From positions 1-64,000 of IMG/VR virus record IMGVR_UViG_3300037067_001255: 64,000 nt of DNA; one strand, 5' to 3'. A program made the position numbers and the translations under genes. Every line of letters begins with the position of its first letter. Positions within the stretch are counted from its first letter, which is position 1. This document shows positions 9,117 through 64,000 of this stretch, one piece after another. The notes beneath the pieces were generated by a model that made no database searches, was not told the DNA's origin, and saw nothing but the letters and a program-made list of their open reading frames with translations. Source of the stretch: a virus. Taxonomy: Duplodnaviria > Caudoviricetes.

Positions 9117-9671
9117 ATGAACTACGAGGTGTTTTTGTGCAACAGTAATGGTGTTGTTGGGCATGTTACACATCATGGGGAGCTAGATGATGAGTTTTTG
9201 TGTACCCTTACTGGACTTACCAACAGCATGTCACATCATATCGTGATCTATCGGTGGTTGGGTCCACAAGGAGGTGTAGGGGACATCTATGTGGGAAGGG
9301 AGGGATTGGTTGTGTTGGCTCAGGAGATTGAGGAGGAAAAGAAGATCGAGAAGGAGCCTACATTCTCAATCAAGGTGGAGATCCCAGAGGGATATCCTCT
9401 TGAACAAGTGACATGCAAGATTACTGGAGTAGTTCCAGAAGTGATAAGTAAGTCTATGGGCAAGCCGGACTTCCCAATTAGTGTTACTGGTGACACCGCC
9501 AACATCTTCTACGGGTTTTGGGGACACCTGGAGAATGGTGGTTGTTACTTCAAGGTACTTAGGCGGGATGTTCCTAGTTATATTGGTAAGTTTGAGGAAT
9601 GGGTCAAGGAGGTGAACGAGTGGATTGTAAAGCAGGAGATTATGCCTGCTGAGACAGCGGTAATCTCCTAG
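9117..9671 (+). CDS. Hypothetical protein (Y.G..GL family N-domain)
   Basis: AGGAG RBS; YEVFLCNSNG...YVGREGL. Confidence 0.6.
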   Translation: MNYEVFLCNSNGVVGHVTHHGELDDEFLCTLTGLTNSMSHHIVIYRWLGPQGGVGDIYVGREGLVVLAQEIEEEKKIEKEPTFSIKVEIPEGYPLEQVTCKITGVVPEVISKSMGKPDFPISVTGDTANIFYGFWGHLENGGCYFKVLRRDVPSYIGKFEEWVKEVNEWIVKQEIMPAETAVIS

Positions 9672-9790
9672 TCTAGGGTTCTAAGTTCTCAAACTTTCTT
9701 AGCGGGATTTCTTTCTTCTTTCTAATTAGCCCCCGCTAAGAAAGCTTAAGCACTTAGGGCTGTAAACAACCAAAAGGGGTGAGTAGTAAT

Positions 9791-10081
9791 ATGTCATTGT
9801 TAGACCTGCAAGTGGCGGAGGTTAGTAGTATGCTAGAAAGGTTGACAAATCTAGTAAGATCGGGGGAGGGAGATGTTGAGAAGTTTGCACGAGACATTTC
9901 CGAGGCAGAGAAGTTTCTGAAGCCTTGGTTCAGTGATTCTGCTGCTCCAAAGGTACTCTCGAATATCGCAGTAATGGTAGTAACAAATCCCATGTCACTA
10001 CCTGGTCTGCTTATGGTTGTTTTGCAGGCCGGGTACAACTGTCGTAAACTAGAAGAATCTGCAATGGGGGAGGAGAAGTAG
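9791..10081 (+). CDS. Hypothetical protein
   Basis: ORF with RBS. Confidence 0.55.
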   Translation: MSLLDLQVAEVSSMLERLTNLVRSGEGDVEKFARDISEAEKFLKPWFSDSAAPKVLSNIAVMVVTNPMSLPGLLMVVLQAGYNCRKLEESAMGEEK

Positions 10082-44170: not shown

Positions 44171-45748
44171 ATGGATACTACTACTATTGATTCCTTGACT
44201 ATAGATAATGATAAAAGAATGCTTATGGCTAGAAAGGAATCAGAAGCACAGTCTAATTTTATGGTCTCAAGGATAATAAGAGGCTTGGAAAAAGACAATG
44301 AAATAAGATTGGGGCTAAATGAGCAGTTACTTCCTAACGGTAATAAGATACCGGGCCACAGAATAAGTAAATGGGTGTCAAAAAACAAAGATACTATCAG
44401 GGGTCTAGTAGAAGATGCAGCTAAAGAGCATGAGTTTAAGGAATCTATAAAACAGAGACTTCACACAACATTATCAAAAGGCGTAGAAGAAGGAATAGAT
44501 GATGCTGTTGGGTTGTTAGTTGGACAAGGTGTGGACGTGGATTTTGAAAGTGTATTAGATGTTGCTTCTATCAACAGAGAGATACTGAATACTCATATTA
44601 GGGATAGGTTTCCTTTTAGAAGAAGAGAAGATAGAGGAATATGGGAAGAGGGGGTTTCATTTGATACTCTTCCTGGGGAAGAGCCCGAGGGATATGGTGA
44701 TAGAGAATACAAGATTAGACCGGGACCTAATGATTATAGGATAGGATATAGGGCAGATAAGGATGAGGGAGAAGGACTAAGTCCAAATCTGAACAACAGA
44801 GTAGACAGGACTATAAATGATTTATTAGGCGATTCACATTCATTGGTATCAGAAAGTATGCGTGCATTGAGTGATGTTAGGTCAATACCTGGTGGTATTA
44901 GTGAAAAAAGAGAATCTCTTATTCCGGCAACGGTAATTGGCAAGACAATTAGTGGAAAAATGAAGATGCTATTTGTAAGTGAGAGAAACAGGGCCTATCA
45001 GAGAGCAGTTATTAGCTTAACAGCTAAATTGGGGATAAAGTTTGTTAAGTGGAATCTAAGATCAGGACATGGTGTAATATTAGGTAAATACAAGATGGTT
45101 CGTGATTGGTGTGATGATATAGCCTGTACACCAATAGAAGTTAGTTTAAGAAGATGGCCGGAGCAGATAAAAGCTCTTAGGGATTGGAATGAAACTGGAT
45201 TCTTCAAGGATGCAAAAAAAGGTAAAACATCCTTTCCAATAGAAGAGGGTCCAGTTGATATTATAAATAAGGAGAATATTAGAAAGGTTACACTTAGCCC
45301 TTTAGTAGGGATATTTAACTCTGTTCAGATTGTACAGAGAAAAATCCCAACTATTGTATATAAGTGGAATTTCTCAAAAGGAGTACAGATATTTTACGAC
45401 AGGGTAGAGAGGGAGCTTTTTGTTCCTCCACACCCATTTTGTAGTTGTATTATGATTCCACTGTTTAATTCTAAAGATGTAGAAGGTTCTACAAGGGGTG
45501 GAAAAGCCGGAGAAGAGATGAGAAATAGGTTGTTGTCTCTGGAGAATCAAGAGAGGGCGGCAGATATAGAACAAGGAATGGCTTCGGGGGAAATGTCAGA
45601 TAGTGTTCTATTAGCACTCTTAGCAGATATGTTAGAGTCAGATGATCTTGCAAAGGTATACATGGAACCAGTTAAAGAATACGGTACAGATGCAGTATTC
45701 CTTCCTCCTGAGGTGGTGATAGAACTTCCAGAAAGACAAGTTGCATAA
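44171..45748 (+). CDS. Head morphogenesis (MuF-like) protein
   Basis: SE.NRAY, WCD, PPHPFCSC; follows portal. Confidence 0.65.
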   Translation: MDTTTIDSLTIDNDKRMLMARKESEAQSNFMVSRIIRGLEKDNEIRLGLNEQLLPNGNKIPGHRISKWVSKNKDTIRGLVEDAAKEHEFKESIKQRLHTTLSKGVEEGIDDAVGLLVGQGVDVDFESVLDVASINREILNTHIRDRFPFRRREDRGIWEEGVSFDTLPGEEPEGYGDREYKIRPGPNDYRIGYRADKDEGEGLSPNLNNRVDRTINDLLGDSHSLVSESMRALSDVRSIPGGISEKRESLIPATVIGKTISGKMKMLFVSERNRAYQRAVISLTAKLGIKFVKWNLRSGHGVILGKYKMVRDWCDDIACTPIEVSLRRWPEQIKALRDWNETGFFKDAKKGKTSFPIEEGPVDIINKENIRKVTLSPLVGIFNSVQIVQRKIPTIVYKWNFSKGVQIFYDRVERELFVPPHPFCSCIMIPLFNSKDVEGSTRGGKAGEEMRNRLLSLENQERAADIEQGMASGEMSDSVLLALLADMLESDDLAKVYMEPVKEYGTDAVFLPPEVVIELPERQVA

Positions 45749-46963: not shown

Positions 46964-47884
46964 ATGGCAAACCAGTGGAATAGGGCAACGGCGGGGGCTT
47001 ATGCCCTTACCGATGCGATTAGAACAGTCTATTCAAGTCTCATTATGTTTGCGGCGCAGCCAGTGGAACGTTATGCACAGTTCGCGGAAATTCGTGAGGA
47101 ACTGGGCGTAGTTCCTGGTTTGACGATTCAGTTTATGAAGTACGACGGGCTTAGCGACGCTACCGACCTTACTGAGACGACTGATATGGAAGTAGAAGCG
47201 ATGGCTACTTCTACTGTTAGTATTACTGTTGCAGAGAAGGGTAAGGCCGCTGGTGTTACCGAACTTCTTCTGCAGAGTGCCTTCACCGATGTTATGGCCG
47301 ATGCGTCGACTCAACTGGGCCACAACTTTGCGAAGAAGGAAGACACCGATCTTCGCACTACGGTTATTGCTGTGGGTAATGTGAAGTATGCGTGGTCTGG
47401 TGGAACTGCAGCAGCTAGTCGTGCTGCGCTTACTAGTGCCCATAAGTTTGATACCAACCTAATTAAGGATGGTGCCGAACTTCTCGCCATTAACAATGTT
47501 CCTAAGGTTGGCGGAGAGTTCTGGGTCTGCTTCGTGCATCCTCACCAAGCACGGGCGCTTCGTGACGACTCTGCTTGGATTTCCGCGAACGAGTATGCTG
47601 GTGCCCGCGCGATCTTCCTCGGTGAATGCGGGATGTATGAAGATACCATCTTCATTGAGACTACTCAGCAGCCCAAGCTGACTGGTTCTGGTCTCGCTGG
47701 CGCGGATGTTTATCAGGCGGTTATGTTTGGTGACATGTTCTATGGTTATGCTATTAGTCTTCCTGTAGAACTTCGCGATAATGGTGTTCAGGACTTCGGT
47801 CGCAAGCACGCCCTTGCGTGGTACTCTATTTATGGTTCTGGTCTTCTGCAGAGTGGCTTCGGTACTCGCCTGGAATCCGGCTAG
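46964..47884 (+). CDS. Major capsid protein (N4-gp56-like HK97 fold)
   Basis: PG.TI.F.KY, V..E.G, FVHP.Q...LR.D..W, GE.G.YE...FIET, DFGR...LAWY; biased codon usage. Confidence 0.9.
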   Translation: MANQWNRATAGAYALTDAIRTVYSSLIMFAAQPVERYAQFAEIREELGVVPGLTIQFMKYDGLSDATDLTETTDMEVEAMATSTVSITVAEKGKAAGVTELLLQSAFTDVMADASTQLGHNFAKKEDTDLRTTVIAVGNVKYAWSGGTAAASRAALTSAHKFDTNLIKDGAELLAINNVPKVGGEFWVCFVHPHQARALRDDSAWISANEYAGARAIFLGECGMYEDTIFIETTQQPKLTGSGLAGADVYQAVMFGDMFYGYAISLPVELRDNGVQDFGRKHALAWYSIYGSGLLQSGFGTRLESG

Positions 47885-48253: not shown

Positions 48254-48577
48254 ATGGCTGGCAAGAAAGTAACTGAGAGAGTCGGAAAAGCACTAGGTAC
48301 TGCTCTTGATGTGGGAAAGAGGGCTGCTAGCAAAGTAACTAGTGGTGCTAAGGCTGGCTATGGTGCTGCTAAGGGACAGGCACGTGCTGCATACAGCGAT
48401 GTTAAGGTTGCAGCGAGTAGGGGTTCAAAGACTGATACTCCTGGTACTCGCAAGTATGTTAAGGGTGCCCGTGTTCGCACAGGGCTTCGCGGTGCAGCAT
48501 TAGCTGCTGGTGCTACTGGTGCTGTGAAGGGTGCAAAGGCAATCCAGAAGAAGCGGGCAGCAAAGAAAGCTAAGTAA
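48254..48577 (+). CDS. Basic Lys/Ala/Gly-rich (histone-like) protein
   Basis: Composition; ends KKRAAKKAK. Confidence 0.6.
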   Translation: MAGKKVTERVGKALGTALDVGKRAASKVTSGAKAGYGAAKGQARAAYSDVKVAASRGSKTDTPGTRKYVKGARVRTGLRGAALAAGATGAVKGAKAIQKKRAAKKAK

Positions 48578-48578
48578 G

Positions 48579-49526
48579 ATGAGAATAGCCTTTTCCCGAA
48601 TAGGTGGTTTCGGGGACGGTTTGGTGGCAACGGCAGCAGTGTCAGGTATTAGAACAAAGTTTCCAGAAGCACAGATTACTGGTTATCTGTACTCGTCTAC
48701 TTATCAGATGTTTGCGGGGAATAAAGACGTAGACAAGTTAGTAGAGATAACTATTAGTCCAAGTAGAATACCAGAAGAAACGATTAGAGAAACTGTTAAG
48801 GATAAGTGGGATATCTTCTATGATCTAAAACCGATACCTGTAGTATACTTCAAGGAAGACTATGAAAACTACAGGACAGAACAGAATATACTGTGGGGTG
48901 ACAGACTAAAGACGCTCAATTCTGGCTATATAGATAGCTGCAGAGAATTGAGCGTCTTTGGTTTAGGGCAGTTGGAACTAATGTCCGAAGTATTAGATAT
49001 ACCATTAGGTAGGATGAAAACTAAGTTTAAGAGAACTACTAATAACTACATAACAATCTGCAATGAGGCATGGGGGGAAGCCCCCACAAAGACGTGGTAT
49101 CAAGAAAGATGGAAAAAAGTAATAGAGTTCATTATCTATCATGCACAGTTAGATGCAGTATTTCAGATTGGGGAATTCAGAACAGAGACAATGACAGGAT
49201 GTACAAACCTCACAGGTACACAGAATCTAAGATCGGCTTGCGAAATAGTGGCCGGGTCAAAACTTCACTTAGGAATAGAAGGTTTCTGGAATCATTTCTG
49301 TAAAGCATTAGAGATACCAGCAGTTATTATCTTTGGCCCGACACCAAGTTCATTTTTTGGTTATCAGGAAATAAGTAATATCCAAAGTGAAGTTTGTAAT
49401 AACTGTTGGTGGCAGAAGAAGACTTGGATGCTTGAGTGTCCAAAGGGCTTCTCAATAAACGACAGGTCTTGTATGAATGATATAACAGTAGAGAGAGTAA
49501 TTGCTGAAGCTATAAATCATTTATAG
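48579..49526 (+). CDS. Glycosyltransferase family 9 (heptosyltransferase-like)
   Basis: RIGGFGDGL, KTW..ERW, NLTG..NL, G.EG..NH, IFGPT, C..C...C...CM.DI.VE.V. Confidence 0.85.
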   Translation: MRIAFSRIGGFGDGLVATAAVSGIRTKFPEAQITGYLYSSTYQMFAGNKDVDKLVEITISPSRIPEETIRETVKDKWDIFYDLKPIPVVYFKEDYENYRTEQNILWGDRLKTLNSGYIDSCRELSVFGLGQLELMSEVLDIPLGRMKTKFKRTTNNYITICNEAWGEAPTKTWYQERWKKVIEFIIYHAQLDAVFQIGEFRTETMTGCTNLTGTQNLRSACEIVAGSKLHLGIEGFWNHFCKALEIPAVIIFGPTPSSFFGYQEISNIQSEVCNNCWWQKKTWMLECPKGFSINDRSCMNDITVERVIAEAINHL

Positions 49527-49540
49527 TGAGGAGGGCAGTA

Positions 49541-50740
49541 ATGAAAAAGAATCAAAAACAGAATCTTAACTGGCAAGATTATGAACATGCTGCAAGATCA
49601 AACATCATGCCAAAAAGATTACACGGGGAAAGAAGAGAGGTTGCCCTCCAAGCTAATCCCGATTTAGATCGTAAGCTATTAGAAGAAGAAATAAAGCTGG
49701 CAAGACATCAAAGAAGTAGACAACAGGCAATAGGTGCCCGTCTAAGTGCGGAAGAGCTACGAAGACAACATGCTTATTGGACAAGTCCCGGTAAGGGTGA
49801 CAAGATTTTAAGTTTTCCGCTTAGAATGGTTGAAGCAACCGCAATGATGATTGGACTGGGTAGTGCTAAGGCTGGTATTTCTGCTTTAATGGAAGACGAG
49901 AAGACCCGTAAAGCAATAAATGCAAAACTTGGTACTACATTCGTTAGTCCAAGTAAGAGAATAGAACAAGGAGCATTTGAAAGATTAGTAAGGCAAAAGG
50001 CAGAGGAACATCTGACTAGGATTGGTGTGGGAAAGGCCAAGCCAAAGTCGTTTGATTATAGAACTCAACTGAGAACTATTCAACCACATTTTGCATCTAA
50101 TCCTGGACTAGAAGATTGGTGGAAAGAACTTCAGGCTGCTAAAGCGGATGAAGTGGTGGACGATGCATTTAAGAAGATGTGGAAAAAGAGTATTACTATT
50201 CATCCAGTAGACTTCTCTACCGCTCCTCCTATCTATAAGGCCACAAAAATTGCAGAGAAGGTAAGTGATGCCTCTTTTAGAGATGCTGTAACAGGAAGTC
50301 CTGAGTGGTTGATTGAAAGAGACAAGGCACTTAAGAGATATGAGAATAATGCTTTTGTTAAGGCCGGAAAAAGAGGGGTAAATGTAGCATCAAGTATTGG
50401 TAATACTATTAGTGCAGCACTAGGAAATGTAGAGGCACAGAGAGGTATTGGAGAAAAGATAAGTAAGGTTCCGGGAGAAGATTTGATTGCGTTAGGAAGG
50501 AAATCTGCAAGAACAAAACTTGCATTGGGTGCTGGTGTGGCAGCAGCAGTAGTAGGTGGGGGAATAATCCTCACAAGACAAATACAAAAGAAGAGAATGG
50601 AACAAGAGTTAAAAGCACACCAAGAGCAGAGACACAGTATCTATGAACAAGCAGGTTATCAAATTGATCCTTCTAAGCGTGTAGAGAAGTCTTGGCTTAC
50701 TCGTAGAAGGAAGTATGGAGAAAGTGGTATGCATGGCTAA
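49541..50740 (+). CDS. Basic protein with glycine-rich hydrophobic helix and W.TRR..YG tail
   Basis: LALGAGVAAAVVGGGIIL; C-terminal RVEKSWLTRRRKYGESG. Confidence 0.65.
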   Translation: MKKNQKQNLNWQDYEHAARSNIMPKRLHGERREVALQANPDLDRKLLEEEIKLARHQRSRQQAIGARLSAEELRRQHAYWTSPGKGDKILSFPLRMVEATAMMIGLGSAKAGISALMEDEKTRKAINAKLGTTFVSPSKRIEQGAFERLVRQKAEEHLTRIGVGKAKPKSFDYRTQLRTIQPHFASNPGLEDWWKELQAAKADEVVDDAFKKMWKKSITIHPVDFSTAPPIYKATKIAEKVSDASFRDAVTGSPEWLIERDKALKRYENNAFVKAGKRGVNVASSIGNTISAALGNVEAQRGIGEKISKVPGEDLIALGRKSARTKLALGAGVAAAVVGGGIILTRQIQKKRMEQELKAHQEQRHSIYEQAGYQIDPSKRVEKSWLTRRRKYGESGMHG

Positions 50741-51170
50741 AGTAAGTAGATTCGGAGATATTGCTCCTCCAATTCCAATGGCAACAGCCGGGGAAGTTGA
50801 GACAAACGAGGCTGTATTACCAAAGTTGTTTATGGTAAATAAGGGTGGGGCAAAAAGAGTAGCAGCACTTAGAGAAAAGAGATTCGGTATAGCAGAAGAT
50901 CAGATGGCAGCACAAGGAAATCCAGATGATCTAATAGAAGTATCAACTACTATAGACTATGAACATACAGTAGGAAATACTAAGTACCAATACTTAGCCT
51001 TTGAGCCGATGGAAGTTCCAAGAAGTGTGGCAGCAATTCTACAAGAAGCTGGTGTACTCTTTGTTGGTGGGGCTACAGCAGCAGTAATTAAACAAGCACA
51101 GATTAACTCAATTAAGAATATTGAAGCCGCAGGTAAGTGGAGAATTCCTAAACCAATAATCGGTGGGTAA
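50733..51170 (+). CDS. Head-associated hypothetical protein
   Basis: G...Y.......VPRSVA..L.E.G pattern; structural context. Confidence 0.5.
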   Translation: MAKVSRFGDIAPPIPMATAGEVETNEAVLPKLFMVNKGGAKRVAALREKRFGIAEDQMAAQGNPDDLIEVSTTIDYEHTVGNTKYQYLAFEPMEVPRSVAAILQEAGVLFVGGATAAVIKQAQINSIKNIEAAGKWRIPKPIIGG

Positions 51171-51171
51171 T

Positions 51172-51546
51172 ATGGAAATTGCAAGAACTTTTACAGACCC
51201 CAAGACTGGTAAATCTACTAACAGGAATCAAATAGCCAGTATTGATTTGAATAGAGGCATGTCTACAGCTACTGCAATTATAGGTGGGGCAGTAGGTGTA
51301 GTAGCAGGAACTTACTTAGGAACAAAGATGGGTGGGAAGTTTAAGGGAGAAGCAGCACAAGCAGCAGTATCTACTGGTTTGGGGACATTAGGATATGATA
51401 TTGGTTCGCACGTAGGAACTTCCCAAGATGAGAGGTTTGACGAGAGATATACTCCGAGGGCAGGTGTGGGGGATCGTTACGAGAAGATGTGGATTACACG
51501 ACGGGATAGGTATGGTAAAACAGGAAGAGGGAAGAGGTCGCGGTAA
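51172..51546 (+). CDS. Glycine-zipper protein with W.TRR..YG tail
   Basis: IIGGAVGVVAGTYLG; RYEKMWITRRDRYGKTG. Confidence 0.6.
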   Translation: MEIARTFTDPKTGKSTNRNQIASIDLNRGMSTATAIIGGAVGVVAGTYLGTKMGGKFKGEAAQAAVSTGLGTLGYDIGSHVGTSQDERFDERYTPRAGVGDRYEKMWITRRDRYGKTGRGKRSR

Positions 51547-53827: not shown

Positions 53828-56045
53828 ATGTCAAATACCAAGGCCAACAACGGCAACGGGCAGATCCGCGACCCCATGCGCATAGCCACCATCCGCCGCG
53901 ACGCTGATGGCCTGCACATCACACTCCTGGCCGACCCGTCGCTGGTGCTGGACGGGACCGGCCAGCCGTTGCCGAAGTCCGCCGCTCTGGCCGCCATCCG
54001 AGCGCACATAGCGAAGGCGAGGCGAGGCGCATGACACCCGAGCAGATAGCAACCCTCCGCGCCGCTTTCGTCGGGCAGACCTGGGAGAGTGGCGCGTGGA
54101 CATGCACCGAGGTCCGCGATACCGGCTACCGCGTGATGGTGTTCGTGCGACGCCACAGCGGCAACTACCTCGACCTTGACGCGACGGGCACCGACCCAGT
54201 TGCGCTGGCGGCTACCATCGCCGCACAGGTTGCGCTGCGCGAGGCAGACATCAAGACGCGCGAGGCCGCCGAAGTCGAAGCGGCTGCGCTGGCACAGCTT
54301 GTCGGAGGGGAGGTGTAGCGCATGGCAACCTATCGGTATTGGGACCCGGTGACCGGGCACGACGACACCGGAACCGGGACGGCGGCGCTACCTTACGCCA
54401 CCCTGAACAAGGCGACCACCGGAGCCGTCGGCGGCGACGAGGCACGCCTCGCTAAAGGTCCGGCGCATACCGACCTCGGGACTGCATTGTGGACGGAAGG
54501 CAGCACGACCGTCGAGTTCACGAGCGCTCCGACACTGGTCAACGGTGACTTCATCGCCAAAACATCAGCGGGAGGGCCTGGCAGCGCAGAGACCTGTTGG
54601 GAAGTCAACACGTGCGTCGGGACGACCGTGACGCTCTACGCCACCTACCCTGGAGCGACAGGGACGGTGTCGACCAAGAAGATCGGGACCATTACCAGCG
54701 GAAGTCAGACGATGGCTGGTATCAGCGCGAGTGAGGGTAACCCCGTTGTTGTGTCGGGTGGCTGGAACCTAGCGACCGAGACGCAGGACGGGGAAAGCTG
54801 GCTTTGCAGGGTTGGTCCAAAGGACACGGCCGGTCTCGATAACAACTCGCAGGAGCACGTCAGGTTCGAGGACATTGGGTGCCTACGCCACTCCTATGGC
54901 CTGGGGTTCTACTACGGCGCCAATGCCGACGTCTCCAACATCACCTGCAATGGGTCGGCTGGCGACGGAGTACATGTGCGTCTCGTGGGCTGCGAACTGA
55001 CGGACATCGTCGCCTGTGGTAATGGGGCCTACGGTATCAACTGCTACGAGTCCTGCCGCCAGAGCAGATTCACGAGGCTGACGCTCGACAGCAACGCCAA
55101 CGGGCTGTATCTGCGCCGCGCCAAACAGAGCGTGTACTCGGATGTTACAGCACGGCGCAATACTAATGCGAATATCATGGTTGCATATACTCGCGACGCG
55201 GCAATTCGCGGAGCGACACTTGAACATAGCACCTACGGAATCTATCAAGCCTCTGGAGGGTTGGGAACCCGCAACGAGTTCACCGGGATCACCGCGACCT
55301 CCTGCACCTACGGGGTCTACATGGACGAGCAGTGCGACGATAACGTGTTCAGCGATGTTATTTTCGACTCGTGCACCACCGGCTACTACAGCATCCGCTG
55401 CCTGGGCAACGTCCTGAACAACGCCATTTTCACGGGGTGCGGGACCGACCGCAACATCGTGGCAGGGCAGGACTACGCCCAGTTCCCAAGCCTGCTGATG
55501 GAGAGCTATGGTGGTGTCGCAAATGCCCGGCGCATCTATTACGAGCACGGTATGGCGGAGTACGACACAGCCAACCAGCCGGTTGGGCTCGATGGATGCC
55601 TCGCACTCACTCCGTCCAGCGCCACCTACTACATCGGCACCTGTTTACTGGACGAAGCGTTCCCGGCCATTGCGACCGCGAGCACACAGCTTGTGCTCAG
55701 CATCCTGGCGAAGAAGTCGGTGGACTTCAACGGCGACGTGGTGCTTGAAGCCTACGTCGACGGGAAGTTGACGGACACCGTCGTGCCCACGCTGACGACC
55801 AGCTACGCCACCTACACGGTGACGGTGGCGGGCGTCGACATCCCGCGCAGCGGCCCATGCGTGGCCCTCCGCGTGCGCGTGCGAGGGACTGCGGGCAGCG
55901 TCTACCTCTCGACCTTCGGGTGGGCATAATGTCTGACAACCTCACCCTCTGGCGTAACGGCGGCCCATTCATCGCGGCTGGCATGGGCAACACTACCAGC
56001 CTGACCGCTTGGCGTAACGGCGGCCCGTTCGTGCGATTTCTGCCA
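53828..56045 (+). other. GC-rich horizontally acquired cassette (53828..54034, 54031..54318, 54322..55929, 5' part of 55929..56600)
   Basis: Abrupt switch to C/G-ending codons and CpG-rich DNA, then abrupt return near 56045. Confidence 0.85.
54322..55929 (+). CDS. Right-handed parallel beta-helix protein (putative tailspike/receptor-binding)
   Basis: YWDPVTGHD..TGT...PYATL.KA start; repeated N...YGI, N.F..I turns. Confidence 0.75.
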   Translation: MATYRYWDPVTGHDDTGTGTAALPYATLNKATTGAVGGDEARLAKGPAHTDLGTALWTEGSTTVEFTSAPTLVNGDFIAKTSAGGPGSAETCWEVNTCVGTTVTLYATYPGATGTVSTKKIGTITSGSQTMAGISASEGNPVVVSGGWNLATETQDGESWLCRVGPKDTAGLDNNSQEHVRFEDIGCLRHSYGLGFYYGANADVSNITCNGSAGDGVHVRLVGCELTDIVACGNGAYGINCYESCRQSRFTRLTLDSNANGLYLRRAKQSVYSDVTARRNTNANIMVAYTRDAAIRGATLEHSTYGIYQASGGLGTRNEFTGITATSCTYGVYMDEQCDDNVFSDVIFDSCTTGYYSIRCLGNVLNNAIFTGCGTDRNIVAGQDYAQFPSLLMESYGGVANARRIYYEHGMAEYDTANQPVGLDGCLALTPSSATYYIGTCLLDEAFPAIATASTQLVLSILAKKSVDFNGDVVLEAYVDGKLTDTVVPTLTTSYATYTVTVAGVDIPRSGPCVALRVRVRGTAGSVYLSTFGWA

Positions 56046-58544: not shown

Positions 58545-58817
58545 GTGGGATTAAGGGCGGCACTAAAGAAGGATAAAGAAAATACTAAGAGGATGATTGA
58601 TCTTAAAGTGGTGGAAGCTCTAGAAGATGCTAATAAGAGAGCAATTAAAGAGGTTCCATTTTATCATCCAATTAAGAGAGCAAGGCTAGTTAAGAAGTAT
58701 CACGAGCAGGCACTTAAGGATACTGGATATGATAAGGGAGATGTCTGGCCCAATCAAGATTCTGAGTGTGGAAGAATAGAGTATAAGGGTTTTCATTCTC
58801 CTAAACAGTTTTGTTAA
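58545..58817 (+). CDS. Small protein with GDVWPN tag (1/5)
   Basis: C-terminal GDVWPNQDSECGRIEYKGFHSPKQFC. Confidence 0.7.
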   Translation: MGLRAALKKDKENTKRMIDLKVVEALEDANKRAIKEVPFYHPIKRARLVKKYHEQALKDTGYDKGDVWPNQDSECGRIEYKGFHSPKQFC

Positions 58818-58829
58818 GGATTGATAAAG

Positions 58830-59042
58830 ATGCCAAGACTAGGAAAAGCAGGAAGGGCTCCAGAAGTAAGGCCAGTAAATAGTAAACTCTTTGTTCCTTT
58901 TGCATTAGGAACGGGGGTAAGTAGATGCCCTTATTTTGGGTCTGGTCTTAGTAGATTTACTAAGTTCTCTATTGCTGCACAAGGGGCGCCAGACTCAAGG
59001 AGCGGGTATCCAATTACTCGTAATGAAGGTAGAGCCTGGTAG
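58830..59042 (+). CDS. Small basic protein
   Basis: GVSRCPYFGSGLS resembles GISRPGFGVGHS of 61899 ORF. Confidence 0.5.
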   Translation: MPRLGKAGRAPEVRPVNSKLFVPFALGTGVSRCPYFGSGLSRFTKFSIAAQGAPDSRSGYPITRNEGRAW

Positions 59043-59076
59043 ACTAAGCACTATAAATCATTTATAGGTGTAAACC

Positions 59077-59358
59077 ATGAACACATTTCCTTGGTATAAC
59101 TATAGACTTCCAAGTAGGTATGATATACCTACTAACGAAACTCTAACTAATCAGAGAGCTACGGATAGATTTCCTCTTAGACAATTTAGACCAGCAACAA
59201 GAGGAAATCCAAGTAAACTTTCTCCAAGTATTCAACAGATGGTGGTGGAAATTAGAGGGAAGTTCGATGAGGATCAGATGTTTCTCCTCCAAGGAATGTC
59301 TGCTCAAGCAGCAGCAAAAGCAATAGGGAATATTAACACGGGGAGGAGTTATATCTAA
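59077..59358 (+). CDS. Small basic protein
   Basis: AGGTG RBS next to palindrome; TAATG coupling to next gene. Confidence 0.55.
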   Translation: MNTFPWYNYRLPSRYDIPTNETLTNQRATDRFPLRQFRPATRGNPSKLSPSIQQMVVEIRGKFDEDQMFLLQGMSAQAAAKAIGNINTGRSYI

Positions 59359-59846
59359 TGGGAGTATTTTCTGGTATTGCTAATAAGGTGGTGGAAAAAG
59401 GAAAGTCTTTTGTTAATGCAGTTAAGCCTTCTACGGTTACAAAAAAGGTAGCGGGAAAAGGAAGGTCTTTCTTCGGGAATGTTGTTAAAGATATTAAGTC
59501 TTCAGTATTAGATACTGGGGTTGCTAAGAAGGCTCATGTAGAGAATATAGAAAGAATGAGAAGTGCTCATGTTACCGAGGAGACAATAAGTGCAGTAAAG
59601 AGACCACCGGGATACTTCAGAAACTATTTTACAAATACTAAAACTGGAAAGACCATAAAAAAGGGTGCCCAATATGGTGCTGTTGGGGCGTTGGCTCCTG
59701 CTTCAATAGGTGTTTCAAGGGCATTAGTGGGAGGACCTCCACCTCCTCAGTATTATGAAGGTGGTGATGTGTGGCCCAATCAAGATTTTGAATGTGCAAG
59801 GATTGAAGCTAAAGCATTCCGTGATCCTAAGACGTTTGTGGGGTAG
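59358..59846 (+). CDS. Basic protein with GDVWPN tag (2/5)
   Basis: GPPPPQYYEGGDVWPNQDFECARIEAKAFRDPKTFVG. Confidence 0.75.
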   Translation: MGVFSGIANKVVEKGKSFVNAVKPSTVTKKVAGKGRSFFGNVVKDIKSSVLDTGVAKKAHVENIERMRSAHVTEETISAVKRPPGYFRNYFTNTKTGKTIKKGAQYGAVGALAPASIGVSRALVGGPPPPQYYEGGDVWPNQDFECARIEAKAFRDPKTFVG

Positions 59847-59852
59847 ATTATT

Positions 59853-60077
59853 ATGTTATTTTCTAGGTATGATCGTGGTCCTGCTACTATTAGAAGTAAT
59901 CTTGATAATACTGTGGGAAGTATAATCAATATAGAGGCACAAGTTCTGGGGAAGAAGGTTGTAAAGGGAAAGGTAGTACCGGCAGATCAACGAGGAGATG
60001 TGTGGCCTAACAAGGATACTGAATGCGCTAGAATAGAAAGAAAAGCTTTTTTGCAACCTAAGACATTTATGGTGTAA
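59853..60077 (+). CDS. Small protein with GDVWPN tag (3/5)
   Basis: GDVWPNKDTECARIERKAFLQPKTFMV. Confidence 0.7.
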   Translation: MLFSRYDRGPATIRSNLDNTVGSIINIEAQVLGKKVVKGKVVPADQRGDVWPNKDTECARIERKAFLQPKTFMV

Positions 60078-60079
60078 TA

Positions 60080-60490
60080 ATGAAATTCAAACCCACATCA
60101 TTTGATGATAAGATATATGATGAAATGAAAGGAATATCAGAGGACTTCTTTGATAGTCTTGGAGATCGTCATATTATTCAGTGGGAGAAGGCACAGGCAA
60201 AAGGTAAGAAGGGGACTTATCAAAGATATGATCCAGTAGAAGCTAAGATGTTTATTCGGTGTGTAGCCGATGCTATGAAATCTCAGCTTCTACTAGGAAT
60301 AGTTATTAAGGGGGACTTTGTGGGGGTAGCAAAAAGAGATGATGATGTAGACTTTACAATGGGAGACCTGATAACAGATCACGAAGGAAATGTATATGAG
60401 ATAAATAAGAGAGATATTCAAGGCGGGGGAATATATACGGTGGTAGACTTAAGTAGAGTTAGAGATGGTGATATTGGTGATTTACCATGA
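60080..60490 (+). CDS. Probable head-closure protein
   Basis: GDLI....G..YEI motif; neck position. Confidence 0.5.
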   Translation: MKFKPTSFDDKIYDEMKGISEDFFDSLGDRHIIQWEKAQAKGKKGTYQRYDPVEAKMFIRCVADAMKSQLLLGIVIKGDFVGVAKRDDDVDFTMGDLITDHEGNVYEINKRDIQGGGIYTVVDLSRVRDGDIGDLP

Positions 60491-60813
60491 GAATGGTACT
60501 AAAAGATAAAAAAGATACAACAAAGAAAGATTGGTTGGATTATCAAAAGAGGTGGGGTGATAAGTATGCCAGAGACATGAAGCAGCATCTATTAGATAAA
60601 TCAAGAAAAGGAATAGGTAAAGCACCATTAGTGCAAACATCTAATACAGTAAGGTCTGGCGGAAGAGTAGTAGAGATTGTTGCAGAGGGTAAAGCAGCGG
60701 ATGTACTAGCTAATGAGAAAGCATTAAGTAGACAATTAAAGATAGGATTAGACTTACCAGAGAATCTTCCGTTGGGGCAGTATTTAGATAAGGTAAGGAA
60801 GAAGTCAGAATGA
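60487..60813 (+). CDS. Probable neck protein
   Basis: Basic; PLVQT; between head closure and tail terminator. Confidence 0.4.
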   Translation: MRMVLKDKKDTTKKDWLDYQKRWGDKYARDMKQHLLDKSRKGIGKAPLVQTSNTVRSGGRVVEIVAEGKAADVLANEKALSRQLKIGLDLPENLPLGQYLDKVRKKSE

Positions 60814-61355
60814 CAGTACCAAGAGAGTTTTATGACAAAGAAGTAAATGATGGCATACTTGATCTAATGTATGCCGACCTTGGTACTGAGTTTGAATTGG
60901 ATTCTTCGGAACCAATTTATTATGGACTTCCTGATTATGTTTCCAATTGGCCTTGTTTAATTAGTGTTCCTGCGGATACGGAAGTAAGAGCCGTAGAAAG
61001 TCCATATATTTCAGATCAAGAGATACAGCACAAGATTGTATATCTTTTTCAAGCAAAGCGGGCTACACAGTCAACATACACAGAAGACCCTTCTTTAACG
61101 GCAAAAGCATGGATAGCAAGGATGTTAGACTGGCTTGCTTATGCAACTGTTAATGATAGGTTTCCTCTAAGAGTTCCAGTAAATCCAAGCACCTCTGATA
61201 ATTGGCTAGTACACTTTTATGGAAGACCTTGGGTGGGTAGAGTAGAGGGAGAATACCAATCTTCTATTAGAGAGTTCAAAGAAGAAGAGAACTTGTTCGC
61301 TCCTCAAATAGAGTTTACAACGGTGTGTCGTATCCCGTTTAGGCAATTAGTTTAG
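60810..61355 (+). CDS. Probable tail terminator/completion protein
   Basis: Acidic; WPCL.S motif; position. Confidence 0.5.
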   Translation: MTVPREFYDKEVNDGILDLMYADLGTEFELDSSEPIYYGLPDYVSNWPCLISVPADTEVRAVESPYISDQEIQHKIVYLFQAKRATQSTYTEDPSLTAKAWIARMLDWLAYATVNDRFPLRVPVNPSTSDNWLVHFYGRPWVGRVEGEYQSSIREFKEEENLFAPQIEFTTVCRIPFRQLV

Positions 61356-61395
61356 CTGGTTATAAATCATTTATAATGGAGAGGAGGAATTAGAT

Positions 61396-61893
61396 ATGTC
61401 AGCAAGATCAGTTAGAGAACAAAAAATACAAGATGCGAGGCAGGCTAGAATAGATGCCTCTGTTAATAGAGGAAAAGAGTTTAGAGATAAGCTTGTGCAG
61501 AGACAAAATACTAGAGAAAGAGTAATGCAGAATATTGGAAAGAGCAGGGAGTCTAGTGGTAGGGCAGCTAGTGGAATTGGAAAGTTGGCTGAAACAGAGG
61601 CTAGAATGAGACCTTCTGCTCCAGTATCTGCACCAACCGTTGCCGCTAATCCGGCTACTGGTGTAGCGTCAAAAGGAATGTCTAGGGTAGGTAAGATTGG
61701 TGTAGCTGCGGGGGCAATAGGTGTAGCTGCATTAGGAGTAAGAGCACTTAGAAATAGAGGACAGAGAAGAATGGAATCACAGGGTCCTCCACCTACTCAA
61801 TACTACCAGCGTGGGGATGTGTGGCCCAATCAAGACCCTGAATGTGGAAGAATAGAATACAAAGCATTCAACAATCCAAAACAGTTTGTGTGA
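61396..61893 (+). CDS. Basic protein with GDVWPN tag (4/5)
   Basis: GPPPTQYYQRGDVWPNQDPECGRIEYKAFNNPKQFV. Confidence 0.75.
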   Translation: MSARSVREQKIQDARQARIDASVNRGKEFRDKLVQRQNTRERVMQNIGKSRESSGRAASGIGKLAETEARMRPSAPVSAPTVAANPATGVASKGMSRVGKIGVAAGAIGVAALGVRALRNRGQRRMESQGPPPTQYYQRGDVWPNQDPECGRIEYKAFNNPKQFV

Positions 61894-61898
61894 TTATA

Positions 61899-62186
61899 AT
61901 GAGAGTAATAGGAAGTGGTAGGTCAAATGCTCGATTAGGTGCTAAAAACTTTAGTACGGTGGTTGGTATTAGTAGGCCGGGGTTTGGTGTTGGTCACTCA
62001 CCAAAACCTACTGTCTTAGAGAGACGAGGGGCGGGGGCACTTAAGGTATTTCATAACAGAGGGCCTTATGGATCAGGAAGACTAAACAAGTTTACTGGTG
62101 GTGATATCTGGCCCAACAAAGACGAAGAATGTAGAAGAATAGAGTACAAAGCCTTTACAAATCCTAAGATGTTTGGAGGTGCCTAA
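61899..62186 (+). CDS. Basic Gly/Arg-rich protein with GDIWPN tag (5/5)
   Basis: GDIWPNKDEECRRIEYKAFTNPKMFGGA. Confidence 0.7.
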   Translation: MRVIGSGRSNARLGAKNFSTVVGISRPGFGVGHSPKPTVLERRGAGALKVFHNRGPYGSGRLNKFTGGDIWPNKDEECRRIEYKAFTNPKMFGGA

Positions 62187-62187
62187 A

Positions 62188-63348
62188 ATGAGTGATATTA
62201 GTAATACTCTTTTGCTTGGTTCAATAGATAGGGAAACTGCTACAGCTAAGGCAATCAAAGCTGCAGTAGCACAGACCGAAGATATGTATACAATGGTTAC
62301 AAGAGAAGATAATCCTGGTGACTTGACAGGAACAATTAACGGAGCAGTTTCTGCGGCTAACTGTGATGCAAAGGTACAAGGATGCACAGCACTTTACAAT
62401 TTGTTTGCTGATTGGGTAAGTTTCCTGAACACTCGTGCGATAGATGCGACAAGTACGGGTATTGAAGATTTGCTGGCAGATAGGTACTTGAGGGTTCCAA
62501 AAAGTTGGTGTGATTACTGTATTGCAGATACAGCTTATGATGGGGCAAGGTTGTTCCCGGATACGGATGTGTCCTTAGGTACGTTTTTGTATGGTGGAGA
62601 TTTTGTAGCAGGAAGCAATCTTTCTACAGATGTTGATTATTGTTGGGGTGTAATTGAAGTAGGTACTGGTGGAATTGGTGGAGTAGATTGGGTATTAGCC
62701 GTAGATGTTACTTATGCAGATGATACTGTCGGTACAGAAGCAGTGACCATAACTAACGGTAGTCTTGCAGGGGTTCAGTTTGATATTGGAGCGAATCTTC
62801 CTAATGCAGTAGCAAAGGCAGGACAAACGGAAATAGGAATTGCAGCCACGGCAGGGTTTGTGGCGGGGCAATATGTGTTGGTGGTTGACGATCAGTATCC
62901 GGCACTGCTAACTGCCAATGCTTCCTCGGCGCAGAAGATTATCTATGTTGATCCAACTCAGATCGGGGGCTTCAGAACAGGAGACCCTGTAACTGTTAGA
63001 GATGGATCAGCTAATGAGAATCTAACGATTGAAGATATTGACTATGAACTTGGTAAGATTACTATGACAACTGCTCTCGGTAATTCGTATACAACCGGGG
63101 CTAGCGCCTTTGTATATCTTCAAGCGCCAATTTCTGGTAGAGAAGGTTGGCAGGAATGTCATGCCGTTGCTAGTGTAACTACTAATACGAAGATTGTACT
63201 TACTGGAAATCTTCAGCATACTTACTATACTGGTGCTAAGGTTATTCGTATGATTAAGGATGTTACAGATATTGATACTACCTCTGGTGGGGCTTCGGCG
63301 GAAGATGTAATTGCGAAAAGTAAGTCAGAACGAACTCTCACACAATAG
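62188..63348 (+). CDS. Virion structural protein
   Basis: Repeated A..G.T.I......GF..G..V.I beta modules. Confidence 0.6.
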   Translation: MSDISNTLLLGSIDRETATAKAIKAAVAQTEDMYTMVTREDNPGDLTGTINGAVSAANCDAKVQGCTALYNLFADWVSFLNTRAIDATSTGIEDLLADRYLRVPKSWCDYCIADTAYDGARLFPDTDVSLGTFLYGGDFVAGSNLSTDVDYCWGVIEVGTGGIGGVDWVLAVDVTYADDTVGTEAVTITNGSLAGVQFDIGANLPNAVAKAGQTEIGIAATAGFVAGQYVLVVDDQYPALLTANASSAQKIIYVDPTQIGGFRTGDPVTVRDGSANENLTIEDIDYELGKITMTTALGNSYTTGASAFVYLQAPISGREGWQECHAVASVTTNTKIVLTGNLQHTYYTGAKVIRMIKDVTDIDTTSGGASAEDVIAKSKSERTLTQ

Positions 63349-63378
63349 TATAAATCATTTATAGGAGGTGAATTGATT

Positions 63379-64000
63379 ATGCCTTTTGGATTAACGTGGC
63401 AAAACTGGGTGGGGTTTACACTAGAGACCGGAGATAACATTGCCTATAAGGCTACTGGTGCTGCTGGTGTGGGAGAAACCTCTCCTACAGTATTTCTTCC
63501 TTTGGCCGGGGCAGAGAGTATTAAAAGAAATCCTAATACGATGTTCTCCCCGTCTATTGAGTCCCTTCTTCATCCAATGAGAACCTCAAAGGGTGCAGAG
63601 ATTGTGACTGGGAGTATTCCAGTAGGAATTCCTGTGGGGCTGTTTAGTGGAGACTTTATGGACTGGGCTATTGGAACTACTGGTGCATTTACATTTGCAG
63701 GTGACTACTATCAACTTCCTTCAGCTACGTTGTGGGTAGCTGTTTCTAATCAAACGGGTTTTGTTAAAGTTAAAAAAGTAACTGGGGCTAAGGTATCAAA
63801 AGTAACAATCGAAAGTGCAGCAGGAAGTAACTGGGTAAATATGACACTGGACATTGTAGGAAGAGACATGGCGTTAGATACTAATGCTATTTCTCTCTCT
63901 ACTATTCTAACAAGTATCTACGGCTCAGAGGCTTTGGCAACTGTACCTGAGTATCGTCATTTAGATAGTAGATTTTATTCTACTGCAGCAACTGGTGCTT
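63379..64000 (+). CDS. Probable tail tube/major tail protein (3'-truncated)
   Basis: GGAGGTG RBS; open to window end; G...ET..., V.GSI, LPS.T, G.KV....I pattern. Confidence 0.6.
   Translation, partial: MPFGLTWQNWVGFTLETGDNIAYKATGAAGVGETSPTVFLPLAGAESIKRNPNTMFSPSIESLLHPMRTSKGAEIVTGSIPVGIPVGLFSGDFMDWAIGTTGAFTFAGDYYQLPSATLWVAVSNQTGFVKVKKVTGAKVSKVTIESAAGSNWVNMTLDIVGRDMALDTNAISLSTILTSIYGSEALATVPEYRHLDSRFYSTAATGA

Follow-up and report, generated by a model that had tools for sequence, protein, structure and literature searches.

The recruitment of small internal or channel proteins into tailed-phage particles is known for only a few models, namely the N-terminal signals of T4 and P1 and the core of T7. 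Outside the tailed phages, encapsulin cargo is loaded by means of peptides at its C-terminus, which attach to the inner side of a shell with the HK97 fold (review, PMC7355545). The internal proteins of phage T4 (IPIII) and DarB of phage P1 carry capsid targeting sequences, which are N-terminal signals, about 10 residues long in T4 and located within the first 30 residues in P1 (PMC9024508, citing Mullaney and Black, 1996). Small proteins that sit at the DNA channel of the virion include gp6.7 and gp7.3 of phage T7 (PMC11784390); inside the tail of phage 80alpha, a tail completion protein accompanies the DNA and the tape measure (PMC11661146). These channel proteins are found in the core, adaptor, nozzle or tail top, beside the DNA end, and some proteins of this type leave the particle at infection. 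In the P22 scaffolding protein, a C-terminal helix-turn-helix of about 30 residues suffices to bind coat protein, a virion building block.

We analyzed a 64,000-nucleotide stretch (the window) of a 102,062-bp phage genome, in which five small, strongly basic proteins encoded on the + strand end in a 25-residue module (the tag), GD[VI]WPN[QK]DxECxRIExK[AG]FxxPKxF. ORF calls and a six-frame scan agreed with the first-pass annotation, which had placed this tag at the ends of ORFs 58545, 59358, 59853, 61396, and 61899, always 1 to 3 residues from the stop (1, 2, 2, 1, and 3 residues for tags 1 to 5). The motif starts at nt 58737, 59763, 59994, 61813, and 62100, and a six-frame regex scan found no other copy in the window. 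Likewise, tblastn and a broader family HMM found only these five copies in the whole genome. Tag protein 1 (58545..58817; 90 aa from a GTG start; tag at nt 58737-58811, one residue before the stop) carries no hydrophobic helix in its basic N-terminal part, which it shares with its orthologues P0004 and P0008. In tag protein 2 (59358..59846; 162 aa; tag at nt 59763-59837; orthologue P0005), the N-terminal part is basic, and a hydrophobic stretch rich in Gly and Ala and a GPPPPQYY linker come ahead of the tag. Tag protein 3 (59853..60077; 74 aa; tag at nt 59994-60068) has P0006 as its relative. Tag protein 4 (61396..61893; 165 aa; tag at nt 61813-61887) starts with a long, charged helix; after it come a disordered segment, a hydrophobic stretch rich in Gly and Ala, a GPPPTQYY linker and the tag. 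Its AF2 model contains a helix at residues 3-71 (pLDDT mostly >90 to about residue 50 and 65-73 beyond), a segment at residues 86-115 with pLDDT <50, and a tag of moderate confidence (pLDDT 75-84) with a helix at residues 148-159. Tag protein 5 (61899..62186; 95 aa; tag at nt 62100-62174) is basic and rich in Gly, has a conserved RxLGAxNxST motif in its N-terminal part, and has N-terminal orthologues in four other genomes. Because these orthologues share the N-terminus from that point on, the start predicted from the sequences is most likely ATG 61899 rather than 61842.

The five tags share 16 or 17 invariant residues, depending on the alignment, and 14 of 16 invariant codons use at least two synonymous codons. 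Nucleotide identity between tags is 65-79%, with dN of 0.09-0.29 and dS >1 or saturated. These values imply that the tags did not arise by recent DNA duplication, and a DNA-level repeat is ruled out as their source. Five-fold occurrence of the tag by chance is excluded, and its conservation is at the protein level, as first proposed, and under purifying selection. The N-terminal parts of all five proteins are basic (pI 9.8-12.0; net charge +4 to +17) and two of them, in tag proteins 2 and 4, carry the Gly/Ala-rich stretch and GPPP(P/T)QYY linker, again in line with the initial description; the tag itself is neutral to acidic (net charge -3 to +3). The statement that the five proteins are unrelated holds for most of the N-terminal parts, which lack detectable mutual similarity, but not for those of tag proteins 2 and 4, which are weakly similar (30% over 138 aa; BLAST E 4e-4).

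This arrangement resembles encapsulin cargo loading in that a short C-terminal peptide occurs on different proteins of one system, presumably with one binding site, and in that an HK97-type shell protein is present. However, the tag does not resemble encapsulin cargo peptides in sequence, is longer and more structured (25 residues with a predicted helix), and is carried by small basic proteins without a recognisable domain rather than by enzymes or ferritin-like proteins. As in T4 and P1, a common short signal marks several proteins of one phage, and the T4 and P1 proteins travel in the particle; the phage tag is C-terminal, unlike their signals. T4 internal proteins are small and basic, as are the tag carriers. 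Like the tag proteins, the T7 and 80alpha channel proteins are small and encoded among structural genes, but they share no sequence similarity with them (PHROGs), and none is known to have a docking module common to several paralogues. The P22 scaffold helix differs from the tag in being basic, in occurring on a single protein, and in having a carrier that leaves the particle.

Searching 1.84 billion proteins with a profile gave 31 real relatives, each of metagenomic origin. These relatives are 65-306 aa long with basic N-terminal parts, their 25 tag positions align without gaps, and in 26 of the 31 the tag ends 0-7 (or no more than 5) residues before the stop. The N-terminal pI is 9.7-12 in all members but P0017 (pI 8.1). 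In roughly half of the members, a hydrophobic stretch rich in Gly and Ala precedes the tag by 7-57 residues (10-36 in most), and members without any hydrophobic helix are common. Ten tag positions are invariant among 24 tags of seven genomes and nine across all aligned members. In agreement with the earlier judgement that the tag is not a named domain, neither the tag nor any of the five whole proteins had a significant match in Pfam-A, PHROGs v4, NCBIfam 20 or PDB sequences. The best E-values of the five proteins against named families (0.045-0.74) fell far short of the cut-offs, and these matches all lay in N-terminal parts, the one exception being phrog_21226 (E 0.32), whose match extends into the tag of protein 1. 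A PDB profile search gave 0 matches at E up to 10, and ESM Atlas look-alikes of tag 4 gave nothing above noise. In the wider family, 32 of 33 members had no Pfam match; the remaining one has a DUF533 match on its Gly/Ala stretch. A tag-pattern search of IMG/VR returned no relatives, and GenBank phages gave no DNA match, no match to the 181-aa neck protein described below and no tag match. The nearest cultured relatives of the capsid protein, at about 44% identity, are in Bacillus phage BCD7 and Streptomyces phages similar to BRock, and the single record of these that was examined, Streptomyces phage GiJojo, has a contractile tail module, differing from the phage studied here. This phage and all its relatives are uncultured, metagenome-only sequences. 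The five window proteins and the tags of L008-L026 combine a gap-free C-terminal 25-residue motif, a basic N-terminal part and a place in a neck/tail gene block, and we propose from these sequence features that the tag is an unnamed, new family, the GDxWxN...ExKxFxxPK C-terminal module of a rare siphophage clade.

The invariant Cys of the five window tags had been suggested to serve covalent or metal attachment. This role, and with it any likeness through the Cys to spontaneous isopeptide or disulfide attachment tags, is unlikely, and we rejected it, because the Cys at position 11, present in 5 of 5 window tags, is replaced by V, I or L in 14 of the 31 relatives. Residues D2, N6, E15, K17, and K23 of the tag are invariant, and a putative Lys-Asn/Asp isopeptide could in principle form through them.

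Matches of neighbouring genes to PHROGs and Pfam (a weak Hc1 match, Phage_tube_2, and tape measure) upheld the placement of the tag genes among neck and tail genes. Three conserved neck-like genes of 136, 108, and 181 aa (60080..61355, +), the first with a weak PHROG match to head closure Hc1 (E 0.003), lie within the tag cluster and encode candidate partners of the tag. Directly after the tag genes, a conserved protein of about 386-391 aa (62188..63348, +), of virion tail type, is a further candidate partner. A strong RBS precedes ATG 62188 of this gene, for which the ORF list gives TTG 62173 as the start. It is followed by the start of the 358-aa tail tube gene (63373..64000, +, continuing to genome position 64449; Pfam Phage_tube_2, E 1.8e-6) and, beyond chaperone-like genes, by the tape measure gene (65357-68254; PHROG match). 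Only 7 relatives of the ~390-aa protein were found; the same query gave no relatives in IMG/VR, and a metagenome scan gave short contigs only. In its AF2 model (pLDDT 85), only an 80-aa beta-barrel insertion domain was recognised (Foldseek, VIA-align), with counterparts in the tail tube, tail tip and baseplate proteins of phages (Z 8-12.5). Such 80-residue beta-barrel insertion domains are common in phage tail proteins.

Related phages have 2-5 tag genes each, tightly packed, partly start-stop coupled, and within the late neck/tail block of every relative. In L009, L010, L012, L018, and L025, gene order is as in the window, with tag genes flanking the neck-like trio and preceding the ~390-aa gene and the tube gene. 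L022 covers only the last trio gene and has extra tagging genes between its 388-aa gene and the tube gene. L026 has a cut 171-aa gene in that position (not compared) and extra tag genes between the tail chaperone and the tape measure. Most N-terminal parts have no detectable similarity to each other, yet they form orthologous groups across genomes, with BLAST E-values of 1e-7 to 1e-12 for most links of the group of tag protein 5 and 4e-4 for the weakest. The view of the N-terminal parts as varied cargo was not supported: the tag is always found on a small basic protein of 65-306 aa, never on an enzyme or a recognisable domain, and the N-terminal parts belong to these orthologous groups. Moreover, a tag-only 34-aa ORF occurs in two independent assemblies, L018 and L019, and L018 also has a tag5-type orthologue without a tag, which implies that the tag is neither always attached to nor always needed by its "cargo".

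We observed, for the first time here, that tags within one phage resemble each other genome by genome even though their N-terminal parts are orthologous between genomes. Identity at variable tag columns was 0.59 within genomes compared to 0.37 between genomes, a difference reached in 0 of 10000 label permutations among seven related genomes, a test that overstates independence. In the tag5-type group, tags were closer to same-genome paralogues (0.59) than to orthologues (0.36), whereas the genome effect was weak in a second orthologous group, B (0.51 vs 0.46). Between tags of one genome, synonymous sites have reached saturation; this speaks against gene conversion in the recent past, although old gene conversion followed by synonymous drift may lie behind the likeness. 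The columns that are genome-specific (10, 11, 13, 14, and 18) point to one side of the helix, at 138 degrees, and those that vary freely (9, 12, 16, and 20) to the opposite side, at 346 degrees, a separation equalled by 2 of 126 splits, and the amphipathic helix predicted by AF2 in the tag 4 model spans exactly tag positions 9-20. Together, the co-variation and the clustering of genome-specific positions on one predicted face point to one shared partner, and in our reading of the sequences the tags most likely dock all carriers of a phage onto that putative partner. The same genome-wise co-variation would be expected for a host protein as partner or for tags that bind each other. The proposal of a modular docking peptide therefore stands as regards one common partner, and its analogy to capsid loading in encapsulins and T4 is weakened by the absence of tag genes from the head modules of those relatives whose contigs include this region.

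The explanation that we favor, at somewhat less than an even chance, is that the tag is a docking module through which small basic proteins are positioned in the channel of the neck or tail. The module would consist of an extended GD[VI]WxNxD stretch, a 12-residue amphipathic helix and PKxF, and one helix face of every tag in a phage would bind the same site on one partner. This partner would be a neck or tail part, such as the connector rings, the ~390-aa protein, the tube lumen or the tape measure. Docking would bring 2-5 proteins, small, strongly basic and in part membrane-active, to or into the channel through which DNA leaves the virion, where they could hold the DNA end or exit ahead of the DNA at infection. 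Basic proteins with a Gly/Ala-rich hydrophobic stretch resemble internal or ejected virion proteins and tape measures. We infer the virion nature of the partner, the presence of the proteins in the virion, and the roles of the N-terminal parts. A bolder form, which we regard as possible but doubtful, is that in this rare siphophage clade a portable 25-residue C-terminal address loads changeable DNA-binding and membrane-active small proteins into the neck/tail channel, with address and receptor co-evolving so that each lineage has its own matching pair. If correct, the tag would be the first described C-terminal virion-targeting module common to several tailed-phage proteins and a tail-side counterpart of encapsulin cargo peptides. 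A short C-terminal module carried by several proteins of one phage and evolving in step with its partner would be a recruitment device of a new sort. Such a module would also single out proteins that may be ejected by siphophages, for which usually the tape measure alone is considered, and a tag sufficient for targeting would be a compact handle to load foreign proteins into phage particles. The one-face co-variation makes a concrete prediction about the docking interface, although a rare, uncultured clade without a known host makes the claim hard to probe in its native system.

The shared-partner evidence fits capsid loading equally well, in which the tag would bind the inner capsid face, the scaffold or the portal and the basic proteins would enter the head with the DNA. 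The genome encodes an HK97-type capsid protein (46964-47884) and a separate scaffold, the tag is short and C-terminal like the encapsulin cargo peptides (PMC7355545), and the strongly basic N-terminal parts recall DNA-associated internal head proteins. We nevertheless consider this unlikely. Encapsulin cargo genes adjoin the shell gene, but here 10.7-15 kb, with a lysis cassette and fibre-like genes, separate the capsid gene from the tag genes downstream of it, a place that suggests neck/tail rather than head core. In relatives they stand beside neck, tube and tape-measure genes and never in the head module, including in L018 and L025, which cover the capsid gene to the neck. Basic Gly/Ala-helix proteins that are encoded in the head module carry a different C-terminal motif, which in sequence terms suggests separate addresses, and no enzyme-like cargo bears the tag. 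In T4, the prohead protease cleaves off the signal (PMC9024508), whereas no such protease was found here among the head-module ORFs scanned, in which a 525-aa ORF at 44171 has no assigned family. A prohead-protease cleavage site (xxE, T4/phiKZ type) inside the tag was likewise rejected, since residues before the invariant Glu are inconsistent across the family and no protease gene was found.

We give similarly little weight to an ordinary paralogous family, in which a small structural or assembly gene was duplicated, the tag is the functional core (a cement, plug or chaperone piece) rather than an address, and disordered N-termini diverge. The tag-only ORF of L018 and L019, the weak homology of tag proteins 2 and 4, the N-terminal parts predicted as disordered or of low confidence except for the long tag 4 helix, and the absence of foreign domains attached to the tag are all consistent with it. 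However, the dissimilar N-terminal parts are each conserved across genomes as their own orthologous group, implying that they are under selection of their own and are not mere decayed linkers. Moreover, old duplication predicts that tags cluster by orthologous position, and the tag5-type group shows the opposite. Hetero-oligomerisation, with tags binding each other and joining 2-5 paralogues, for example as a bundle with a Gly/Ala-rich membrane channel and no separate receptor, has a low probability as well. Within-genome co-variation is what mutually binding helices would show, the predicted tag helix is amphipathic, and the Gly/Ala-rich stretches in about half of the members are glycine-zipper-like. 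Against this, copy number varies from 2 to 5 among related phages, many members have no hydrophobic helix, and 25 residues with a single 12-residue helix are small for a specific multi-subunit bundle. Quite improbable is a signal that a machine outside the virion, such as a chaperone, protease or membrane insertase of host or phage, would recognise on proteins acting in the infected cell: adaptation to a host-specific factor would also give genome-wise co-variation, tags for degradation and recognition typically sit at the very C-terminus, and the hydrophobic stretches could be membrane anchors, but the genes keep to the late neck/tail block of every relative, a basic cluster after the hydrophobic stretch and a large basic N-terminal part before it leave no simple membrane topology by the positive-inside rule, and the proteins have no match to defence, lysis or host-takeover families.

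The 259-nt "gap" after tag protein 1 was considered as a site of a non-coding RNA and rejected, with no Rfam match and a fold z-score of -0.6; a conserved gene of about 70 aa (58830-59042) occupies it instead. This gene and a 93-aa gene (59077-59358) are two conserved small tag-less genes between tag proteins 1 and 2 (58830..59358, +), and homologous ORFs occur at the same place in L018 (6802-6999 and 7002-7277).

Five small proteins of the window, encoded at 58545-58817, 59358-59846, 59853-60077, 61396-61893 and 61899-62186 (tag1 to tag5), end in a shared 25-residue module with the motif GD[VI]WPN[QK]DxECxRIExK[AG]FxxPKxF, as the first-pass annotation had claimed, and in all five only 1-3 residues are left before the stop codon. 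A sixth copy was not found by tblastn of the whole genome or by searching all six frames with an HMM of the broader family. Depending on the alignment, all five copies share 16 to 17 tag residues, and a codon table showed synonymous variation at 14/16 of the invariant positions. Pairwise nucleotide identity among the tags is 65-79%, dN is 0.09-0.29, and dS is either >1 or not computable from saturation. These dN and dS values are far from the dN/dS near 1 of a recent DNA duplication, which was ruled out by the nucleotide identity and the high or saturated dS. Thus, conservation of the tag is at the protein level, as had been proposed, and old. The parts N-terminal to the tag were likewise found to be basic in the five proteins (pI 9.8-12.0), and tag2 and tag4 are the two with a hydrophobic stretch rich in Gly/Ala plus a GPPP(P/T)QYY linker.

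The tag belongs to no named domain that we could recognize: the five proteins had no significant match in Pfam, PHROGs or NCBIfam, and no PDB sequence matched the tag profile at E up to 10. A search of 1.84 billion representative proteins with the five-tag profile (E up to 1e-3) returned 32 matches, 31 of them real. These relatives are 65-306 aa long, align over the 25 tag positions without gaps, and end ≤5 residues past the tag in 26/31 cases, with 16-27 extra residues in the other 5/31; a Pfam match was absent in 32/33 scanned family members. The consensus of the family reads GD[VIL]W-x-N-x-D-x-x-[CVIL]-A-x-x-E-x-K-[ACS]-F-x-x-P-K-x-F. A covalent or metal-binding role had been suggested for the Cys, which all five window tags share; V, I or L takes its place in 14/31 relatives, which leaves no basis for such a role. 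Across the family the N-terminal parts have a pI of 9.7-12, except in one member (P0017, 8.1), and their net charge is positive throughout (+1 to +27). About half of the members carry a Gly/Ala-rich hydrophobic stretch 7-57 (mostly 10-36) residues upstream of the tag, usually followed by an Arg/Lys cluster. In ten clusters checked, all members came from metagenome or read-archive assemblies under the sole name 'hypothetical protein', and the tag was not found in any cultured phage of GenBank. The tag-bearing contigs come from groundwater and sediment samples, and one family member, P0013, is reported on contigs 50-200 kb long.

Within a genome, the tags co-vary. When only variable columns were compared, tag identity was 0.59 in the same genome versus 0.37 in different genomes, a difference reached by 0/10000 permutations of the genome labels. 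Each genome carries a signature of its own, such as E-C-x-R-I-E in 5/5 window tags and V-A-G-K-E with H-x-P-K-T-F in 5/5 tags of the related metagenome contig L010; L14 and C18 are fixed in contigs L018 and L022, with A13 additionally in L022 (A-L-E-x-K-C-F). By BLAST, the N-terminal parts form orthologous groups that span genomes, implying that the pattern does not merely reflect five recent copies per genome. The tag5-type group comprises window tag5, the family members P0002, P0018 (L010), P0025 (L022, L025) and P0030 (L009), and an 81-aa protein (L012); E values are 1e-7 to 1e-12 for most links and 4e-4 for the weakest, between window tag5 and P0018. Tags of this group show 0.59 identity to non-orthologous tags of the same genome versus 0.36 to the tags of their orthologues, and the effect is weak in a second orthologous group (0.51 versus 0.46). 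Recent gene conversion was ruled out as the cause of the co-variation, because in each of the genomes the tags have diverged to saturation at synonymous sites.

The genome signal lies on one side of a predicted helix. In an AlphaFold2 model of tag4 made with a 33-sequence family alignment, an N-terminal helix spans residues 3-71 (pLDDT mostly >90 to about residue 50 and 65-73 after), the middle has low confidence, and the tag (pLDDT 75-84) contains a helix at residues 148-159, corresponding to tag positions 9-20. A per-column test identified columns 3, 7, 10, 11, 13, 14, 18 and 24 as genome-specific (p up to 0.0025), and columns 9, 12, 16, 20 and 21 as highly variable but devoid of such a signal. 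When the helix was drawn as a wheel, the free positions (9, 12, 16 and 20) clustered at 346 degrees and the genome-specific ones (10, 11, 13, 14 and 18) at 138 degrees; only 2/126 possible splits separate the faces as well. The simplest reading is that the tag would form an amphipathic helix with one face to solvent, and that the other face touches a partner common to the tags of one phage and different between phages. Most likely, the tag serves for docking and lets several small basic proteins of a phage reach a single partner that they share. Co-variation by genome would also be expected if the tags associated with one another, or if the partner were a host factor, which would give the same genome-wise pattern.

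Some features favour, and others oppose, a plain paralogous family in which the C-terminus is simply the conserved core. An ORF of 34 aa with the tag alone, and a tag5-type orthologue that lacks the tag and adjoins an HNH endonuclease insertion, fit this reading. However, the N-terminal groups are independently conserved, and in the tag5-type group tags are closer to non-orthologues of the same genome (0.59) than to orthologues (0.36). The 34-aa ORF, hardly more than a tag, lies directly ahead of the Hc1-like gene in L018 (7866-7970), and the truncated orthologue (9804-9983) is cut before the tag with the endonuclease gene inserted alongside (9254-9781); both recur in L019 and thus occur in two independent assemblies.

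Tag genes occupy the neck and tail region, where the first-pass annotation had located them, and the window gene order is kept in the tag-bearing contigs L008-L014, L018-L023, L025 and L026. A homologue of a 466-aa FN3 protein is followed by small genes with up to three tag genes, by a trio encoding ~133, 110 and 180 aa (window 60080, 60487 and 60810), whose leading member weakly matches 'head closure Hc1' (E 0.003), by one or two more tag genes, and then by a ~390-aa protein, the Phage_tube_2 tube, chaperone-like genes and the tape measure. Contigs carry 2 to 5 tag genes, and additional ones lie between a 388-aa gene and the tube in L022 (3026-3340) and after the tail chaperone region, before the tape measure, in L026 (3890-4153). 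No tag gene was found in the head module of L018 or L025, the contigs that reach back to the capsid gene. The ~390-aa neighbour has a confident predicted fold (pLDDT 85) with no clear Foldseek match; its sole recognizable part is an 80-residue beta-barrel insertion domain (Z 8-12.5), common to phage tail tube, tail tip, baseplate and tailspike proteins. From the conserved order, the tag-free head modules and this tail-type domain, we conclude that tag genes associate with neck and tail, not head. Loading of cargo into the capsid, the possible role first proposed, is made less likely by this position and by the basic Gly/Ala-helix proteins that the head module does encode, at 49526 and 51163, which end in a different conserved motif.

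Because tag genes always lie within the neck/tail block, the partner of the docking module would be found there, in the connector rings, the ~390-aa protein, the tube lumen or the tape measure. The N-terminal parts may be DNA-end-binding or membrane-active pieces kept at the DNA exit channel, as suggested by their basic charge, the long charged helices of some and the Gly/Ala-rich hydrophobic stretches of others. Those stretches resemble the ones that start the tape measure of the same phage. Small proteins do occupy DNA-channel sites in known structures: in T7, gp6.7 and gp7.3 are located in the core and where the adaptor meets the nozzle (PMC11784390), and the tail completion protein of phage 80alpha touches DNA and the tape measure inside the tail (PMC11661146). 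The nearest functional concepts are encapsulin cargo-loading peptides, which are C-terminal, shared and read at one site (PMC7355545), and the capsid targeting sequences of T4 IPIII and P1 DarB, which lie at the opposite, N-terminal end (PMC9024508). By their descriptions, the tag is set apart from these peptides in being longer, more structured and neck/tail-encoded. No sequence likeness to the tag was found in Pfam, PHROGs, NCBIfam, PDB or the phage sequences searched; the tag would be of the known type of peptide by which several proteins are targeted to, or docked on, a virus-like assembly, in a protein family that is new. The tag itself is a solid observation and its co-variation yields a sharp, testable prediction; its function is inferred, and the phages that carry it form a rare, uncultured clade.

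The ~390-aa gene probably starts at ATG 62188, giving 386 aa in agreement with its database cluster, and the final codons of tag5 (F-G-G-A-stop) supply its GGAGGTG ribosome-binding site, implying that the two genes are tightly coupled. After tag1, the seeming 259-nt gap (58818-59076) matched nothing in Rfam and showed no unusual RNA folding; it contains a conserved gene of ~70 aa (ATG 58830 to 59042), with a homologue at L018 6802-6999 and counterparts in L010, L012 and L025 that are alike by size and place only. The 15-mer TATAAATCATTTATA occurs in 54 exact copies in the 102-kb genome; a YKSF translation filter gave 57 matches, three of which deviate at the last bases. Copies at window 59052-59066, 61361-61375 and 63349-63363 and at genome 64456 lie directly upstream of the ribosome-binding sites of a 93-aa gene, tag4, the tube gene and the next gene, and so divide the tag cluster into units. 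The 15-mer includes TATAAAT, resembling a -10 or T4-late-type promoter element, and the peptides it translates to (YKSFI / INDLY) recur between genes in L009, L012 and L018.

A second C-terminal motif, R-[VY]-x-K-x-W-x-[TE]-R-R-x-x-Y-G-x-[ST]-G, is unrelated to the tag and ends two basic head-module proteins of the window (49526-50740 and 51163-51546), in both preceded by a Gly/Ala-rich hydrophobic stretch. Further copies lie in L018 (2725-4221, 4599-4931), L025 (5348-6793, 7158-7493) and L010 (453-845), and the motif resembles a second class of 'address' within this phage clade. A third class, with one to three copies per genome, consists of small basic proteins encoded just after the capsid gene, in which a Gly/Ala-rich hydrophobic stretch directly precedes a poly-Lys/Arg C-terminus such as ...KKRAAKKAK (window 48254-48577; L018 838-1212, 1250-1531, 1535-1765; L025 4059-4379).

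The full record is 102,062 bp, with an estimated completeness of 94%; the window is its first 64 kb, in which the + strand carries every long ORF. PHROG/Pfam scans placed, all on this strand, the large terminase at 40821, the portal at 42547-44163, a scaffold-like protein at 46112, the HK97-type major capsid protein at 46964, an M23-type peptidase in a lysis-like block at 52646, a GC-rich beta-helix fibre gene at 54322 and the Phage_tube_2 tail tube at 63373; a PHROG scan placed the tape measure outside the window (genome 65357-68254). The tag cluster thus lies after the fibre-like genes and before the tube. A 525-aa ORF after the portal (44171-45748) had no Pfam or PHROG match; its PPHPFCSCIMIPL stretch may be similar to the His/Cys motif conserved in minor head proteins of the Mu F / SPP1 gp7 type. 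Within the head block, 48531-49526 encodes a heptosyltransferase-like family 9 glycosyltransferase (Pfam E 1.6e-7), which may have virion proteins as targets; L018 and L025 have a 314-aa gene at the corresponding place, alike in length and C-terminus only. The 2-kb segment at 54000-56000, which contains the fibre-like right-handed beta-helix (NosD/Beta_helix) gene, is 62.5% GC versus ~40% elsewhere and looks like a recently acquired receptor-binding module.
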